Shown: piece after piece, positions 54,552 through 59,764 of the stretch
Layout of the letters: the number at the start of each line of letters is the position of its first letter
Position numbering within the stretch: the first letter of the stretch is position 1
Assembly: GCA_035249365.1 (NCBI GenBank)
Contig: DATFGP010000022.1
Span: 192,013-256,012, forward strand
Direction: 5' to 3'
DNA: 64,000 nucleotides
From: Pyrinomonadaceae bacterium
Lineage (GTDB): Bacteria; Acidobacteriota; Blastocatellia; Pyrinomonadales; Pyrinomonadaceae
Made by a program: the position numbers and the translations under genes
Notes under the pieces: generated by a model
The model's input: the letters and a program-made list of their open reading frames with translations, nothing else
What the model was told of the DNA's origin: nothing
Databases searched by the model: none

Positions 54552-55124
54552 ATGTCGTCTGCGACGAAGAGAGTTGATCAGTCGAGCGCACCCGTACAGG
54601 CGGGGGCTGCGGAGACGACTCGCGCGGCCAATTCCCTCGAAGCGTTGGCCGCGCAGATTAAAGAGATGCTTGGCGAATCATGGCTGCCGCGTTATTATCG
54701 TGAACGGATTTTGACTCTGCGCACGCGTGCTCACCAATTGCAAGCCGCATCAACGAAACCCGAACAAGTCAACGTGCAGCACACGCTGCTCGGCGTCGAA
54801 TTAAAGATCGGACGCCGCCGCATCAGTTGCCCCGATCTGGCGACCGCCCGTTACCTCGCGACATTCGCACGAGCGGGCTGCACGGGCGTGGCCGTCCCCT
54901 ACGACATCTCACGGATTTCCCTGCTCGCAGACGAACTCGAATCCGGTTGGCAACGCATGTTGTTGCTCGTAGAACATCTGGCGGGCGGGCGCAGCAAGGC
55001 TTACCGCACGCGCCTGCGCAACGCTCTCATCGCGCAGGCGCGCCGCGAAATTGCGGAGGCCGGAATTGGCACACTTATTCCACAATTCAACCAGAATACG
55101 AAACAACGACGGCGCGGCGTTTGA
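54552..55124 (+). CDS. Hypothetical protein (190 aa)
   Basis: ORF only, with ATG 54552 just after the repeat. No motif recognised. Upstream of, and co-directional with, the GATase1-like gene. Confidence 0.45.
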   Translation: MSSATKRVDQSSAPVQAGAAETTRAANSLEALAAQIKEMLGESWLPRYYRERILTLRTRAHQLQAASTKPEQVNVQHTLLGVELKIGRRRISCPDLATARYLATFARAGCTGVAVPYDISRISLLADELESGWQRMLLLVEHLAGGRSKAYRTRLRNALIAQARREIAEAGIGTLIPQFNQNTKQRRRGV

Positions 55125-55157
55125 ACATCTAATCCCGAACTGGTAAATTATTTTTTG

Positions 55158-56087
55158 ATGATGCAAGAAGTTAAAGAGAAAATCACGCCCATTGATCAAG
55201 AGGAACCGCTCCCCTTCCCTTTCAACCAACGCAGCTTTTGCCGCTTCGAGTCGATTGAAAAGCGCATCGAGGCGATTCGCGTGCTCGTCATAGATGATCT
55301 GCTGCGCGACGAAAGCGATCTCTCCGAACTGGCGGTGCGCGAGTGGGGGCGGCGCGCCAAGTCGCACCTGCAACGCGAGCGTCAGATCGCGGATCTCGCC
55401 GTCTCGAACATTCGCAACAACATTTCGCGTCTCGTGCGCGAGCCGGAAACGCGCGTTGCGCACGTCTCGGAAATTGCCGAGGTGGCCGACGAGTTCGAGC
55501 CGCAGGCGATAGTTTTGAGCGGTACGCTGCGCGACTTCGACTACTATCACCCGCGCGTCATCGAAAACTTCGGCCAGTTCATACGCACTACGAAGATTCC
55601 CGTGCTCGGCATTTGCGGTGGGCATCAACTCGTGGGACTCGGCTTCGGTGCGCGCGTCGTCACGCTCGACAACCGCGAGCAGCACGAGCGCCGCGACGGG
55701 CGACCCTTCGAGTACCAGTATCGCTTCATACGCATCACCGACCCCGAAGACCCGATCTTCGAGGGCGTGAGCGACCGCGAATCAGGCATCTGGCAGGACT
55801 ACACTATCGAAGCCTGCATCCTGCGCGTCTGGCAGAATCACGGCCTCCAACTCGATCACGTCCCGGAAGGTTTCAAACTCCTCGCCACCGCCTACTTCTG
55901 TCGCAATCAGATGATGGTCAAACGCAATGAGGGGCAACTCATCTATACCGTGCAATTCCACCTCGAAAAATCTTTCGAGGACTGGGACAAGACGCGCGCC
56001 ACGCGCTGGGAACACCCGAACGAGTCGCGCGACGGGCGCATCATCTTCGAGAACTTCCTGCGTGAATCGCTCAAACACGCGGCGTAA
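55158..56087 (+). CDS. Class I glutamine amidotransferase-like protein with about 110-aa N-terminal extension
   Basis: Nucleophile elbow 'VLGICGGHQLVG' and a His-Glu pair in 'VQFHLE'. Confidence 0.75.
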   Translation: MMQEVKEKITPIDQEEPLPFPFNQRSFCRFESIEKRIEAIRVLVIDDLLRDESDLSELAVREWGRRAKSHLQRERQIADLAVSNIRNNISRLVREPETRVAHVSEIAEVADEFEPQAIVLSGTLRDFDYYHPRVIENFGQFIRTTKIPVLGICGGHQLVGLGFGARVVTLDNREQHERRDGRPFEYQYRFIRITDPEDPIFEGVSDRESGIWQDYTIEACILRVWQNHGLQLDHVPEGFKLLATAYFCRNQMMVKRNEGQLIYTVQFHLEKSFEDWDKTRATRWEHPNESRDGRIIFENFLRESLKHAA

Positions 56088-56111
56088 ACATTTCGAGTTA
56101 GCGAGAGACGC

Positions 56112-56147
56112 AAAAAAGCCTCCGGCGCGATTGCCGGAGGCTTTTTT
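56112..56147. terminator. Bidirectional intrinsic terminator
   Basis: aaaaaa-gcctccggc-(6 nt)-gccggaggc-tttttt lies between the convergent genes ending at 56087 and 56181. Confidence 0.85.
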
Positions 56148-56180
56148 GCGTTTCTGGAAATTCAGGAGACGCGCCCTCGG

Positions 56181-57311: not shown

Positions 57312-57403
57312 GACCCGACATGAGTTGAGCTATTGGGGGAAGAAACGGAAAACTTCAAACGCAGCCTGCCGCTAACGGCGTCGCCCCGCCCGCATGGGTG
57401 GCT

Positions 57404-57934
57404 CTAAGCGAGCGTCGCCTTGATCGCGCGCCAGTCCGGCGTCTCGCCGCGCACCATCTCACGCCACAAATGGCGGAGCGCGCTGAGCGGGCTGGCGAGG
57501 GGCGAGTACACATCGAAATGAACCCCCCAGAGCGGAGCGACAGTTCGCATCTTCAAAAAATGCAGCACGGCGCGCGAGCGGCCAGTCTCGTAAAAGCCTT
57601 CTGCGGTATTGCGGTGCGCGGCGAAGCGCGAAGTAAAGTTGCGACTTTTAGCCAACGTCGCGGTAAGGTTACCGCGCGCGCGAAAATCCATGCCGACGCC
57701 GCCGAGACCGTACACGTTCCCGATGCTTTCGATCTCGCGCCACAGATTCAACTCTTTCAGGCGACGGACGAAGAGCAACAACGCTTGTTGCTTGTCCACG
57801 TCGAGCACGTCGAACGCGTCGCGGGCATCCGCGTGCCCGTACAAGCCTGCGACCTTTTGAGCCAAATCGTCGCGCAAGTCTTCGGGCAATTCGTCCCAGC
57901 GCAGCTTCGCGTCGTCAATCGCCTCGCCCATCAA
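57404..57934 (-). CDS. Hypothetical protein (176 aa)
   Basis: ORF only. Its start overlaps the PilZ gene stop by 4 nt, which suggests translational coupling. No motif recognised. Confidence 0.45.
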   Translation of the reverse strand: MMGEAIDDAKLRWDELPEDLRDDLAQKVAGLYGHADARDAFDVLDVDKQQALLLFVRRLKELNLWREIESIGNVYGLGGVGMDFRARGNLTATLAKSRNFTSRFAAHRNTAEGFYETGRSRAVLHFLKMRTVAPLWGVHFDVYSPLASPLSALRHLWREMVRGETPDWRAIKATLA

Positions 57935-58269
57935 CTTTGGCGCTGTAGAGCGCGCATCATCGTCGCGCGATCCTTCTCCGACAGTCCTTGAAAACGCACA
58001 CCCACGCCGAGGCCGGGATTGCTGTAAACCACTTCGGCGTTAACGATCACGTCGCCTTCCGCAAACGGGAGGCGAAGCGTGAGCAAGCCGCCTTCGGGCA
58101 ACTCGGTCTGCGTGTTCATGTAGAGGCCACCGGGGCTGATGTCTTTGGTGCTGGCGATGGCCGTGCCGTCAGCGCCGTCGAAGAACACGTCAACGATCAG
58201 GCGCGAGCGGTCGTACTGGCGTCGCTCGTCCGCTGGCAAATTCGACTCCGCATCAAACTCTTCGCTCAT
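57931..58269 (-). CDS. PilZ domain protein (putative c-di-GMP receptor)
   Basis: 'RRQYDR' (RxxxR-type) followed by 'DISPGGLYM' (D/NxSxxG-type). Confidence 0.75.
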   Translation of the reverse strand: MSEEFDAESNLPADERRQYDRSRLIVDVFFDGADGTAIASTKDISPGGLYMNTQTELPEGGLLTLRLPFAEGDVIVNAEVVYSNPGLGVGVRFQGLSEKDRATMMRALQRQS

Positions 58270-58408
58270 GCTCTCACTCTCCGTGCCGGATGAGTCTAAA
58301 GGTGAAGAACATCTGTATCTTACTCAAAGCCGAACAAAAGCGCGTCGCCCATTTTTCCTCATCGAAACAAAGCAAGCCGAATGTTAGACAATGTGTCAGA
58401 CGATGGCC

Positions 58409-59764
58409 TCACGTCTTCTCGCTGATGATGAACGTCGGAACCATGCCGCCGCCCGACGAGACGTTGGCGAGTTCTGTAAACGAAAGACGCGTGAAGGCCG
58501 AGCCGACCTTGCCGAAGAACAAAAGCGGGTCGAGGTCAACGAGTTGCTCCGCAAACTCAAACGTGCCGTCCGGCTGCAAGGCCGGAAACGCTTCGCGCGC
58601 AGTGCTCACGCGTTCCTGCAACAAGTAGTCGCCGTTGGAGAGCGCGTGGCGCAGTGCTGTGTCCCAACCGATCTCGTCTGTGTTCCAACCGATGTAGATG
58701 CCATGCCCGCCGTAGTCGTCGTTGGGTTTGAGGACGAGCCGGTCGCGCGAGTTGGCGGCAAATTCGAGCAGGTCTATTTGTTCGCCGTAGTGGTCTGTGC
58801 GTTCGGCGCGCACCTTGCGCGTCCAGGGGACGTGCGCGCGAATGGCAGCACGCTCCTCTTCGCTGAAGAGATGCGCGTAGCGTTCGTTCGTAAGCACGGC
58901 GAAGAGTGCTTTCTTGTGAATCAACTTGGAGCGGAAACTGTTGACCATGCAGATCGCGCCCGCGCGGTAAGCGTCGAGGAGCGCGGGAAACTCCGCCATG
59001 ATCGGGATGTACTCGTTGACGAGAAGACGCTTGTAGACGATGTCGATTTCATCCGCGCCGCAACGCAGGCGACCACCGCTAAACTCCAACTCCTGCGGCG
59101 AGCAGACGATTGACCTGTAGCCTTCCGACTCGAAATACTCCTGAAATAACTCGAACTCTTTTTGCGTCGGCAGGTCTTTCAAATCAATGATGGCGATGAG
59201 CGGTTTGCGTTCCGGCTCGCGCCCCAGATATTCCGTGTAGGCGCGCAGCAACACTTCGAGCATGAGATGGCGTCCGTAGAGCGGGCGCACGTTATAACGC
59301 TCGCCGAAGCGTTTCATCACGGGCAACTCGGAGAAGATCGAGAAGGCTGCATCGACGTAAGCGATGCCTGCGGGGCTTTCGCCGTTGAGTTCGACGAAGC
59401 TGTAGGCGTCGTCGGTCAGGAACGAATCGAGGCGCGCGGTCGGCGAGACGGCATCGTAGCCGGGGTCAATGCTGACGAGATCGCGCTCTAGTTCGGTGAT
59501 ACCGAGTTCATCCAACAATTCGTCGTTGCCGACCGCCGCGTCCTTCACCTTCTGGATCGCGCCCCAGACCACCTCGCAGACGCGCTCGATGCGCGCGAAG
59601 TCGGTTTCGGTGACGAAGTGCGGGCGCAGGTAGGGCGACAGACGACGACCGCCGAAGATCAGTTTAGCGCGCTCCAAACCCTCGTCGAGCATCTTGCGCG
59701 ACGCCTCGGCCAGATCATTATCCGCCAACAACTGGTGATAGTGCTCAACAGCTTCGTGTAGCAT
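58409..59764 (-). CDS. Circularly permuted ATP-grasp-type protein (putative amidoligase)
   Basis: 451 aa. 'ARLDSFLTDDAYSFVELNGESPAGIAY', 'MVNSFRSKLIHKKALFAVL', 'LVLKPNDDYGGHGIYIG' and 'YLLQERV' match my recollection of the CP_ATPgrasp_2 family. This needs HMM confirmation. Confidence 0.6.
   Translation of the reverse strand: MLHEAVEHYHQLLADNDLAEASRKMLDEGLERAKLIFGGRRLSPYLRPHFVTETDFARIERVCEVVWGAIQKVKDAAVGNDELLDELGITELERDLVSIDPGYDAVSPTARLDSFLTDDAYSFVELNGESPAGIAYVDAAFSIFSELPVMKRFGERYNVRPLYGRHLMLEVLLRAYTEYLGREPERKPLIAIIDLKDLPTQKEFELFQEYFESEGYRSIVCSPQELEFSGGRLRCGADEIDIVYKRLLVNEYIPIMAEFPALLDAYRAGAICMVNSFRSKLIHKKALFAVLTNERYAHLFSEEERAAIRAHVPWTRKVRAERTDHYGEQIDLLEFAANSRDRLVLKPNDDYGGHGIYIGWNTDEIGWDTALRHALSNGDYLLQERVSTAREAFPALQPDGTFEFAEQLVDLDPLLFFGKVGSAFTRLSFTELANVSSGGGMVPTFIISEKT

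Follow-up and report, generated by a model that had tools for sequence, protein, structure and literature searches.

Gene content and layout

The 64,000-nucleotide window comes from a Pyrinomonadaceae (Acidobacteriota) MAG, that of a soil acidobacterium. The six ORFs described in a first-pass annotation of this DNA are all present (Table 1), and its claim of convergent arms holds as well: the plus-strand and minus-strand genes converge on a strong bidirectional terminator. The GC-rich stem of this terminator (GCCUCCGGC) lies between A6 and T6 runs and folds at -48 kcal/mol (z = -8.7) on the plus strand and at -43.5 kcal/mol (z = -6.0) on the minus strand. HMM annotation of the six proteins recovers the expected class I GATase, YbdK/GCS2 ligase, and PilZ protein.

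Table 1. Features of the locus (window positions)
Feature	Positions	Strand	Description
Heptad-repeat palindromic element	54462-54545		Between nuoN stop and unk190 start
unk190	54552-55124	+	ORF, 190 aa; no Pfam/NCBIfam match
GATase	55155/55161-56087	+	Class I glutamine amidotransferase-like, stand-alone, 308-310 aa; PF00117
Bidirectional intrinsic terminator	56104-56155 (about)		Between convergent GATase and GCS2 genes
GCS2	56181-57311	-	YbdK/GCS2-family carboxylate-amine ligase, 369-376 aa; last gene of operon
unk176	57404-57931/57934	-	Orphan protein, 175/176 aa
PilZ	57931-58269	-	PilZ-domain protein, 112 aa; PF07238
CP-ATP-grasp	58409-59764	-	Circularly permuted type 2 ATP-grasp ligase, 451 aa; first minus-arm operon gene

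The GTGAC[A/G]A-heptad palindrome occurs in about 7 to 8 copies in the window, with 0 expected by chance; the copy listed in Table 1 folds at -49.6 kcal/mol (z = -9.5).

The explanation that we favor, with moderate confidence in the whole of it, combines two independent units that abut by happenstance in this genome with a ligase pathway and its gating by PilZ. Unit 1 (minus strand, 59764-56181) would be a co-transcribed four-gene operon encoding CP-ATP-grasp, PilZ, unk176, and GCS2, and unit 2 (plus strand, 54552-56087) is a fixed pair of unk190 and a GuaA-like stand-alone GATase.

The GATase-unk190 unit

GATase scores 67 bits against PF00117 (cut-off, 22.8) and does carry the N-terminal extension previously ascribed to it, which spans about 85 aa. 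All 50 orthologs keep the Cys154/His269/Glu271 triad unchanged. The highly conserved unk190 is a fixed partner of this protein: the two genes always adjoin (median gap, 63 bp), unk190 is always located beside nuoN, and the pair trails the nuoL-M-(TlpA)-N genes.

The two arms stay 0.1 to 7 kb apart in about 50 Pyrinomonadaceae species, as might be expected if some loose functional link joined them. All six genes might then serve one pathway, with GATase supplying ammonia or hydrolyzing gamma-glutamyl bonds in the product of the ligases. This reading draws further support from the Peptidase_C26 score of GATase (21.4 bits, marginally over the cut-off of 20.5) and from a distant cassette (L086) that begins with a PuuD-like Peptidase_C26/GATase-fold gene (gamma-Glu-GABA hydrolase, 1e-32). 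However, the closest relatives of the window GATase are GuaA-type glutaminase subunits, not PuuD; its pair with unk190 always tracks nuoN; and the terminator splits the arms. Only 8 of 50 relatives have GATase and GCS2 as immediate neighbors; in the remaining 42, the two are separated by AlkA-like, ABC-transporter, PadR/MacB, or other genes (the gap has a median of 832 bp and a maximum of 7.1 kb). Moreover, when the 555 kb that surround 55 distant CP-ATP-grasp genes are scanned with HMMs of GATase and unk190, no ortholog of either turns up, and only two weak GATase-fold matches are seen. A six-gene pathway therefore appears quite unlikely. The linkage of the arms proposed in the first-pass annotation is not borne out, and neither is a role of GATase as a gamma-glutamyl hydrolase; the data do not support any link of the unk190-GATase unit, which is a separate one, to the ligase operon.

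The two ligases

The assignment of the first minus-strand gene to the permuted ATP-grasp ligases fails at the level of the single sequence, which scores 21.9 bits against CP_ATPgrasp_2 (PF14403), under the Pfam cut-off of 32, but is rescued by family-level evidence and can be accepted on that basis. Many homologs that are 78 to 98% identical have precomputed PF14403 matches, and a family profile built from 58 sequences matches solved permuted ATP-grasp ligases, with 3n6x the best (4.6e-13), followed by Cp1B (9cjn; 4e-10), YgiC (9e-6), and YjfC (3e-4), and with a weak match to GspS (E = 0.026). The KPNDxYGG motif, Q383, R426, and N434 are invariant or almost so. The family comprises 3731 representatives (E <= 1e-3).

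The YbdK/GCS2 call stands on a full-length match to PF04107 (207 bits) and on NF010039 (541 bits; cut-off, 371). Besides NF010039, the only NCBIfam model that GCS2 passes is the broad TIGR02050 (YbdK family), likewise over its full length. It stays below the cut-offs of all GshA and EgtA models, scoring 392 bits on the glutamate-cysteine ligase model NF010043 (cut-off, 409). The probable start is the ATG at 57290, which gives a 369-aa protein, as called in locus L168. Where distant loci have a GCS2 gene next to CP-ATP-grasp, its identity is 47 to 68%, and the two such proteins from other bacterial phyla that were tested are both NF010039 members (524 to 544 bits). Each of the two ligases would use ATP to activate a carboxylate as an acyl-phosphate and then couple it to an amine.

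Conservation of the ligase pair

The gene-neighborhood comparison covered about 170 loci. Of the 49 distant loci that could be assessed (39 to 61% identity), 33 have GCS2 downstream of CP-ATP-grasp in the same orientation; the distance stays within 150 bp in 26 of these 33 and is only 2 bp in locus L082. Clustering at roughly 70% identity places the paired loci in no fewer than 16 sequence clusters, with the Blastocatellia cluster additional, and an archaeal CP-ATP-grasp homolog (30% identity) has a convergent GCS2 gene 1.3 kb away. Thus, the co-occurrence of the ATP-grasp and YbdK/GCS2 genes, on which the first-pass annotation had staked its proposal, is indeed conserved. The pairing, though strong, is not obligatory: GCS2 is missing in 16 of the 49 distant loci, and in 25 loci from other Blastocatellia, CP-ATP-grasp orthologs (67 to 75% identity) are surrounded by housekeeping genes and have no GCS2 gene close by.

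These solitary orthologs, and the weakness of synteny within a single family as evidence, could suggest a chance juxtaposition in the minus arm of housekeeping genes that have nothing to do with one another and are held together only by shared ancestry within one family. Such an arrangement is extremely improbable and strongly disfavored, as the two ligase genes recur together in 16 or more divergent clusters other than Blastocatellia, with an archaeon in addition. A genome is typically expected to have one or two GCS2 genes, so that adjacency in 33 of 49 loci is not due to chance.

Across many lineages, the pair is usually preceded by genes for an esterase (PF00756, alpha/beta-hydrolase; 15 loci) and for a protein of ~320 aa that lies directly upstream (28 loci). 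The latter is a RimK/LysX-like classical ATP-grasp protein (RimK family, 7e-11; pyruvate carboxylase, 3e-9; Ddl, 9e-9). Other recurrent neighbors are M28/PA, S9, and DinB_2, with M28/M20 or S9 peptidases sometimes flanking the pair. The earlier proposal of an amidoligase pathway gains from this setting, a cassette of several amide-forming ligases and hydrolases that fits a pathway to a small molecule or peptide, uncharacterized but of a type that amidoligase comparative genomics predicts. The ancestral core would consist of CP_ATPgrasp_2 and a YbdK-type GCS2 that belongs to subfamily NF010039, which together would produce a small peptide or peptide-amine conjugate, possibly of the gamma-glutamyl type, with neither ribosome nor NRPS; the hydrolases of the cassette would trim or turn over this product. 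The window and 10 kb upstream contain neither the esterase nor the RimK-like ATP-grasp gene, and for this reason the small-peptide pathway may be truncated or rewired in this genome.

In a more specific version of this pathway, the product would be a low-molecular-weight thiol. The gamma-Glu-Cys made by GCS2 would be extended by CP-ATP-grasp, which would add the next residue or an amine in the manner of glutathione synthetase or glutathionylspermidine synthetase. GCS2 comes close to the cut-off of NF010043 and is homologous to YbdK, which Lehmann et al. reportedly showed in 2004 to be a weak gamma-Glu-Cys ligase in vitro. YgiC and YjfC, acid-amine ligases related to GspS, match the CP-ATP-grasp profile, and GspS itself does so weakly; models of glutathione synthetase give a weak match to the archaeal member (9e-7); and DinB_2 genes, whose DinB fold includes thiol S-transferases, follow GCS2 in 3 loci. 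A thiol product is nevertheless unlikely: the best NCBIfam match of GCS2 is a generic "carboxylate-amine ligase" equivalog, with all GshA models below cut-off, the additional RimK-like ligase and the peptidases of the wider cassette would be left unexplained, and the cassette has no recurrent cysteine or redox genes.

The PilZ and unk176 inserts

The PilZ assignment is secure (PF07238, 52 bits; cut-off, 22.5). All 68 aligned orthologs retain the RRxxxR motif (R16, R17, and R21), 70 to 75 of 75 retain the DxSxxG motif (D43, S45, and G48), and the protein is predicted from these motifs to bind c-di-GMP. In about 74 Blastocatellia loci, the PilZ gene is found within the operon, between the two ligase genes. 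The c-di-GMP input suggested in the first-pass annotation is in line with these observations, but it belongs to a lineage-specific insertion and lies outside the ancestral system. Both PilZ and unk176 are inserts specific to Blastocatellia-type loci and are found in none of the distant CP-ATP-grasp loci. Even among Blastocatellia-type loci, a few lack PilZ and about 11 lack unk176, so the ligases can do without either.

Translational coupling of unk176 to PilZ, also claimed earlier, is real, as the PilZ stop codon overlaps the unk176 start (TTGATG at 57934-57929); across relatives, the median gap between these genes is 23 bp. Folding reveals no structured terminator in the intergenic regions inside the minus-arm operon. 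unk176 yields a confident structure model, yet this model has no fold match, and the sequence has no Pfam or NCBIfam match. In Blastocatellia, including Pyrinomonadaceae, c-di-GMP would act through PilZ, and perhaps unk176, to gate the activity or use of the pathway post-translationally, by analogy with the PilZ modules that gate other synthases in this way (BcsA and Alg44 type).

Alternatively, the ligases could modify a protein or peptide, unk176 or another, by RimK/LysX-like C-terminal extension or pupylation-like tagging, with no free metabolite. The classical ATP-grasp protein of the cassette is RimK/LysX-like, GCS2 has a glutamine-synthetase-like fold in common with PafA/Dop, and the comparative genomics of amidoligases invoked in the first-pass annotation predicts such modifications. 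However, the neighborhoods compared show no conserved small ORF for a carrier or tag beside the core pair, the C termini of unk176 are variable and non-acidic, its gene is lineage-restricted and dispensable, and no RimK-like gene is close to the operon in this genome. Protein modification is accordingly improbable, and a free small-peptide product remains the preferred reading.

Relation to known systems

Among the closest counterparts is a small-peptide synthesis system with PF14403 that Iyer, Abhiman, Burroughs and Aravind reportedly predicted in 2009 (Mol Biosyst 5:1636). The PF14403 entry reportedly names Roseiflexus RoseRS_2616 as the prototype, predicts that the family makes small peptides, and lists as neighbors a GCS2-like COOH-NH2 ligase, an alpha/beta-hydrolase peptidase, a GAT-II-like amidohydrolase, and an M20 peptidase. 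The loci compared here independently show neighbors of the GCS2, esterase, and M28/M20 types, but no GAT-II gene is seen in these neighborhoods. The window operon differs from that system in having no esterase or RimK-like ATP-grasp gene nearby and in carrying PilZ and the orphan unk176 between the ligases, an arrangement that is not known to have been described.

PilZ-gated synthases, such as the BcsA cellulose synthase and Alg44, tie a c-di-GMP receptor physically to a biosynthetic machine, and the window PilZ has the canonical RxxxR and DxSxxG motifs. It is, however, a stand-alone protein in an amidoligase operon rather than part of a glycosyltransferase, and its interaction with the pathway is putative. 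GCS2 is clearly homologous to E. coli YbdK (1r8g, 8.8e-51) and to GCS2-type glutamate-cysteine ligases such as EgtA but falls into the distinct NF010039 subfamily.

CP-ATP-grasp shares its fold with the CP_ATPgrasp_1/Alpha-E/transglutaminase system (DUF404-DUF407, COG2308; 3n6x), described in PMC3597751, citing Iyer 2009, as a predicted peptide synthesis or modification system. That system belongs to another Pfam family (PF04174, on which the window protein scores only 16 bits), and its Alpha-E and transglutaminase genes are absent here, where the partner is GCS2. CP-ATP-grasp also has homologs among other ATP-grasp-type carboxylate-amine ligases, namely glutathionylspermidine synthetase, YgiC/YjfC, and Cp1B from the fungal E-64 pathway, but the similarity is remote, their substrates are not transferable, and the amidase domain of GspS is absent from CP-ATP-grasp. 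Cp1B, which according to PMC12568646 joins a dicarboxylic acid to an amino acid in an NRPS-independent pathway, offers a working precedent for stepwise amide assembly. CP-ATP-grasp and GCS2 form a widely conserved, never characterized pair whose product is probably a small peptide-like compound, and the minus-arm operon represents a variant of the known predicted amidoligase system that is specific to its lineage and probably linked to c-di-GMP.

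Organization of the locus

The six genes form a composite locus. Its minus arm (the CP-ATP-grasp, PilZ, unk176, and GCS2 genes) represents a lineage-specific version of an amidoligase cassette that is widespread and, as far as found, uncharacterized; its plus arm, downstream of nuoN, encodes a 190-aa protein (unk190) and a class I glutamine amidotransferase (GATase). The window derives from a metagenome-assembled genome of the Pyrinomonadaceae (Acidobacteriota, Blastocatellia). All six open reading frames were found where the first-pass annotation had placed them. The circularly permuted type-2 ATP-grasp protein (CP-ATP-grasp), unk176, and unk190 each correspond to an NCBI "MAG TPA: hypothetical protein" entry assigned to a Pyrinomonadaceae bacterium, identical over at least 99% of the length. 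Both unk176 and unk190 are unmatched in Pfam, NCBIfam, PADLOC, and PHROGs. PADLOC and PHROGs searches returned zero matches for any of the operon proteins, so neither library points to a defense-system or phage origin.

Features of the window discussed in the text
Feature	Coordinates	Strand	Remarks
nuoL, nuoM, TlpA-like redoxin gene, nuoN	48185-54464	+	Upstream of unk190
unk190, 190 aa	54552-55124	+	ORF
GATase, 308-310 aa	55155-56087	+	ORF; PF00117
Bidirectional terminator	~56104-56155		Where both arms converge
GCS2, 369-376 aa	57311/57290-56181	-	ORF; PF04107
unk176, 175/176 aa	57934/57931-57404	-	ORF
PilZ protein, 112 aa	58269-57931	-	ORF; PF07238
CP-ATP-grasp, 451 aa	59764-58409	-	ORF; PF14403 subthreshold
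185-189-aa ORF	59951-60520	+	N-terminal hydrophobic segment
SAM_alpha riboswitch match	21525-21600	+	Rfam
631-aa ORF	21757-23652		Follows a heptad palindrome
Low-GC segment, 2.8 kb	40700-43470		Between nuoF and nuoG
TlpA/ResA-like thiol-disulfide oxidoreductase gene	52223-52825	+	Between nuoM and nuoN
Heptad palindrome copies	9097-9177, 11028-11110, 13722-13802, 21665-21747, 28991-29426, 37307-37414, 54461-54546

The PilZ stop codon overlaps the unk176 start codon in the sequence TTGATG. The two arms converge on a bidirectional terminator of textbook form, which is confirmed by folding (energies for the two strands, -48 kcal/mol with z = -8.7 and -43.5 kcal/mol with z = -6.0); the promoter/terminator scanner made no call at this site. 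Folding revealed no structure in the intergenic regions within the minus arm, and Rfam searches found no riboswitch, for c-di-GMP or any other ligand, upstream of the minus-arm operon, returning only hairpin artifacts at the terminator and at a palindromic element.

An additional ORF lies on the opposite strand between the gene for a PDZ protein and the CP-ATP-grasp gene. It matches no family apart from a nonsignificant hit to a DRT transmembrane segment, and it is absent from a relative with 80% identity (L001), in which 382 bp separate the PDZ gene from the ATP-grasp gene.

The two ligases

CP-ATP-grasp scores 21.9 bits (E = 1e-4) against PF14403, under the gathering cutoff of 32, and so is not a member by score. 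The miss is marginal, since many of its homologs (78 to 98% identity) carry a precomputed PF14403 match. A profile built from 58 full-length family members retrieves from PDB the structures 3n6x, a permuted ATP-grasp (E = 4.6e-13), and 9cjn, the fungal ligase Cp1B (4e-10). The alignments cover the motifs KPNDxYGG, QERV, VDxDP, and NVxxGGG, and the KPNDxYGG loop, Q383, R426, and N434-x3-G438 are retained. At the profile level, the protein is homologous to the circularly permuted ATP-grasp ligases, with a conserved Lys/Gly-rich loop for nucleotide binding and a C-terminal Asn/Gly motif, and the subthreshold assignment stands for the family as a whole. In an exhaustive search, the family comprises 3731 cluster representatives at E <= 1e-3, from both bacteria and archaea.

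GCS2 matches its families over the full length and above curated cutoffs: 207 bits for PF04107, 541 versus 371 for NF010039 ("carboxylate-amine ligase"), and 306 bits versus a cutoff of 176 for TIGR02050. It also matches Escherichia coli YbdK (1r8g) with an E value of 8.8e-51. YbdK-family proteins are a long-standing "conserved hypothetical enzyme" problem. As far as found, the literature contains no experimental function for a pair of CP_ATPgrasp_2 and YbdK-type ligases, and full-text literature searches on PF14403, RoseRS_2616, or COG2170 in combination with ATP-grasp gave no match.

Conservation of the ligase pair and its cassette

Three sets of loci were compared: 80 species-level genomes from a genome collection plus one complete genome (set A), 80 contigs from metagenomes, with a distant family member as the reference for retrieval (set B), and single look-ups of distant representatives (set C). 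The genome-collection scan yielded Blastocatellia only, with CP-ATP-grasp proteins 67 to 94% identical, so deep conservation is beyond its reach. Outside Blastocatellia, 55 loci encode family members with 34 to 61% identity, and 49 of these have at least 700 bp of downstream sequence and can be assessed. A GCS2 gene lies downstream of CP-ATP-grasp on the same strand in 33 of the 49, separated by no more than 150 bp in 26 of the linked loci and overlapping in some. The linked loci fall into at least 16 separate clusters at ~70% identity. Their GCS2 proteins are 47 to 68% identical to the one in the window, where the two ligase genes belong to one operon; both distant proteins tested pass NF010039. 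On a contig from Aenigmatarchaeota, the gene for a family member with 30% identity (named "circularly permuted type 2 ATP-grasp protein" by NCBI) and a GCS2 gene lie on opposite strands, 1.3 kb from each other. The conserved core of the cassette is CP_ATPgrasp_2 plus an NF010039-type GCS2, and a chance juxtaposition of these two ligases is strongly disfavored.

De novo clustering of neighbors in the distant loci gives the order esterase, ~320-aa protein, CP-ATP-grasp, and GCS2, with the PF00756 esterase found in 15 loci and the ~320-aa protein in 28. The latter is unmatched in Pfam, and its profile retrieves pyruvate carboxylase (3e-9), D-Ala-D-Ala ligase (9e-9), and the RimK family (7e-11), which makes it a RimK-like classical ATP-grasp. 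PA/M28-M20 peptidases (5 loci), S9 peptidases (3 loci), a second esterase type (3 loci), and DinB_2 (3 loci) recur at the cassette edges. A conserved gene for a carrier or tag was not found, which argues against a role of the ligases in protein or peptide tagging, and we consider such a role very doubtful.

An alternative cassette is seen in three loci of one clade (L112, L116, and L128), in which RimK-like ATP-grasp and CP-ATP-grasp genes are followed not by GCS2 but by genes for a Peripla_BP_2 protein, a DUF547 protein, and a GRDB-like (glycine reductase B-like) fragment.

The window does not have the full cassette, as neither esterase nor RimK-like genes lie directly upstream of its CP-ATP-grasp. 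No homolog of the RimK-like ATP-grasp is encoded in the 64-kb window or in the 10 kb upstream in this genome. Homologs of the cassette esterase are absent from the window, save for one trivial 47-aa match, and from the Pyrinomonadaceae loci (L001 to L081). In 20 Pyrinomonadaceae relatives, a RimK-like gene persists on the opposite strand, ~5 kb upstream.

Some of these data are consistent with the synthesis of a thiol by the ligase pair. GCS2 falls just under the cutoff of one GshA model (NF010043, 391.6 versus 409), with the remaining GshA models scoring far lower. The CP-ATP-grasp profile matches the GspS-related proteins YgiC (9e-6) and YjfC (3e-4), and GspS itself weakly (E = 0.026). The archaeal family member weakly matches glutathione synthetase models, and a few loci have DinB_2 neighbors. 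Such a thiol-synthesis version of the amidoligase model is unlikely.

PilZ and unk176

In Blastocatellia (111 loci, sets A and B), the majority gene order is PDZ protein, CP-ATP-grasp, PilZ, (unk176), GCS2, a variable gap, GATase, unk190, and nuoN. In otherwise intact loci, unk176 is missing from ~11 and PilZ from 3. Twenty-five CP-ATP-grasp orthologs (67 to 75% identity) are found alone, in two unrelated housekeeping contexts: YceI, CP-ATP-grasp, KdsB, and CTP synthase; and LpxC, an unknown protein, EVE, CP-ATP-grasp, and acyl-CoA carboxylase. Profiles of PilZ, unk176, and unk190 built from Blastocatellia orthologs match nothing in 555 kb of distant loci.

The PilZ protein scores 52 bits against PF07238 and contains both the RxxxR and the (D/N)xSxxG motifs. 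The first, R16-R17-x3-R21, is retained in 68 of 68 aligned orthologs; within the second, D43-I-S45-P-G-G48, the residues D43-x-S45-x2-G48 are retained in 70 to 75 of 75. This conservation suggests that the protein is a competent c-di-GMP receptor, as predicted from its sequence.

The unk176 protein is lineage specific, and its confident predicted model has a fold without matches. It was considered as a carrier or tag protein and rejected, as its C terminus is variable and its gene is dispensable.

The GATase-unk190 pair

The GATase scores 67 bits against PF00117, and in both NCBIfam and PDB it is closest to glutaminase subunits of the GuaA type. The class I triad, C154 (GICGGHQ) and H269/E271 (FHLE), is invariant in 50 orthologs. 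As for a synthase that would use the ammonia, the one partner constantly present is unk190, a protein of no recognizable fold or family; the unk190 family has 4766 matches with a nearly invariant core of ~160 residues, and its predicted model (pLDDT 82) gives only generic helical structural matches. One distant locus (L086) opens with a PuuD-like Peptidase_C26 gene; orthology of the window GATase to that gene was rejected on NCBIfam profiles, the GATase being GuaA-like.

Spacing within the plus arm is constant, with medians of 63 bp between GATase and unk190 and 106 bp between unk190 and nuoN. Only 8 of 50 loci have a gap of 100 to 200 bp between GCS2 and GATase; the median is 832 bp and the maximum 7.1 kb. 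An AlkA-like glycosylase gene, on the same strand as GATase, occupies this gap in 24 loci, and genes for molybdate or other ABC transporters or for PadR/MacB occupy it in others. The abutment of GATase and GCS2 in this genome is a minority arrangement. The plus arm, composed of unk190 and a stand-alone GATase, is a separate unit that is constantly appended to the nuo genes.

The first-pass annotation had tentatively united all six genes in a single pathway, which now appears highly improbable: the bidirectional terminator separates the arms, other genes intervene between them, and the unk190/GATase pair is absent from all distant loci, where the GATase profile finds just two weak GATase-fold matches in 555 kb. 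What is left of that proposal is a conserved core of two genes with lineage-specific inserts, the GATase being a bystander.

As a strict pair located directly after nuoN, unk190 and the GATase (with its N-terminal extension of ~85 aa) are found in 46 to 49 scorable Blastocatellia loci. They constitute an uncharacterized unit of two genes that stands by itself and may be connected with complex I.

Other features of the window

The TlpA/ResA-like gene within the nuo string keeps its position in relatives. Elsewhere in that string, the low-GC segment (0.47 to 0.49 versus ~0.59) looks like an island within the complex I operon; its genes, labeled by eye from their translations, appear to encode NUDIX-like (176 aa), membrane/coiled-coil (338 aa), and AIR-synthase/SelD-like (351 aa) proteins.

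A dispersed palindromic element has an A/T-rich loop flanked by inverted arrays of the heptad GTGAC[A/G]A. The heptad pattern has 33 matches in the window versus 0 expected, and the copy that follows nuoN has a folding energy of -49.6 kcal/mol (z = -9.5). The element looks like a lineage-specific REP/MITE-like intergenic repeat, possibly acting as a terminator or stabilizer. One copy lies between the 631-aa ORF and a match to SAM_alpha (SAM-II, "Alpha-proteobacteria SAM riboswitch"), which scores 41.2 against a gathering threshold of 36 bits in this acidobacterial genome.

Functional implications

The Pfam entry for PF14403, citing Iyer et al. 2009, reportedly describes a partnership with GCS2-like ligases and peptidases, predicted from gene neighborhoods and assigned to small-peptide synthesis. 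With two ligases, or three elsewhere, the most economical mechanism would be stepwise ATP-dependent amide formation via acyl-phosphate, and the hydrolases would serve in trimming or turnover of the product. One report assigns the sister family CP_ATPgrasp_1 to "a peptide synthesis/modification system" (PMC3597751, citing Iyer 2009). In the E-64 pathway, Cp1B, a homolog of the window CP-ATP-grasp, joins a dicarboxylic acid to an amino acid (PMC12568646). This pathway offers a working precedent for assembly independent of nonribosomal peptide synthetases (NRPS).

The apparent novelty of the Pyrinomonadaceae loci is the PilZ gene, usually with unk176, wedged between the ligase genes. This placement suggests c-di-GMP control, as judged from motifs and gene order only. 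An ancient amidoligase pair might have come under second-messenger control in this family, with PilZ and unk176 acting either as a switch that depends on c-di-GMP or as a new accessory enzyme and activating the synthesis of an unknown peptide-like metabolite at the change between motile and sessile states; this reading is tentative and, on balance, rather unlikely.

The core is already recognizable to amidoligase specialists. Two findings make the function of the CP_ATPgrasp_2 and YbdK-type pair easier to approach: the two ligases occur together, usually with a RimK-like ligase and hydrolases, and in Pyrinomonadaceae they come with a possible handle on regulation, c-di-GMP acting via PilZ, and with a lineage-specific protein whose confident predicted fold is unmatched. 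The PilZ insertion and this fold-orphan partner are modestly surprising, and they render a c-di-GMP link testable. If the second-messenger reading is true, unk176 would define a new protein family, and the locus would provide the first link between c-di-GMP signaling and NRPS-independent synthesis of peptide or amide metabolites.
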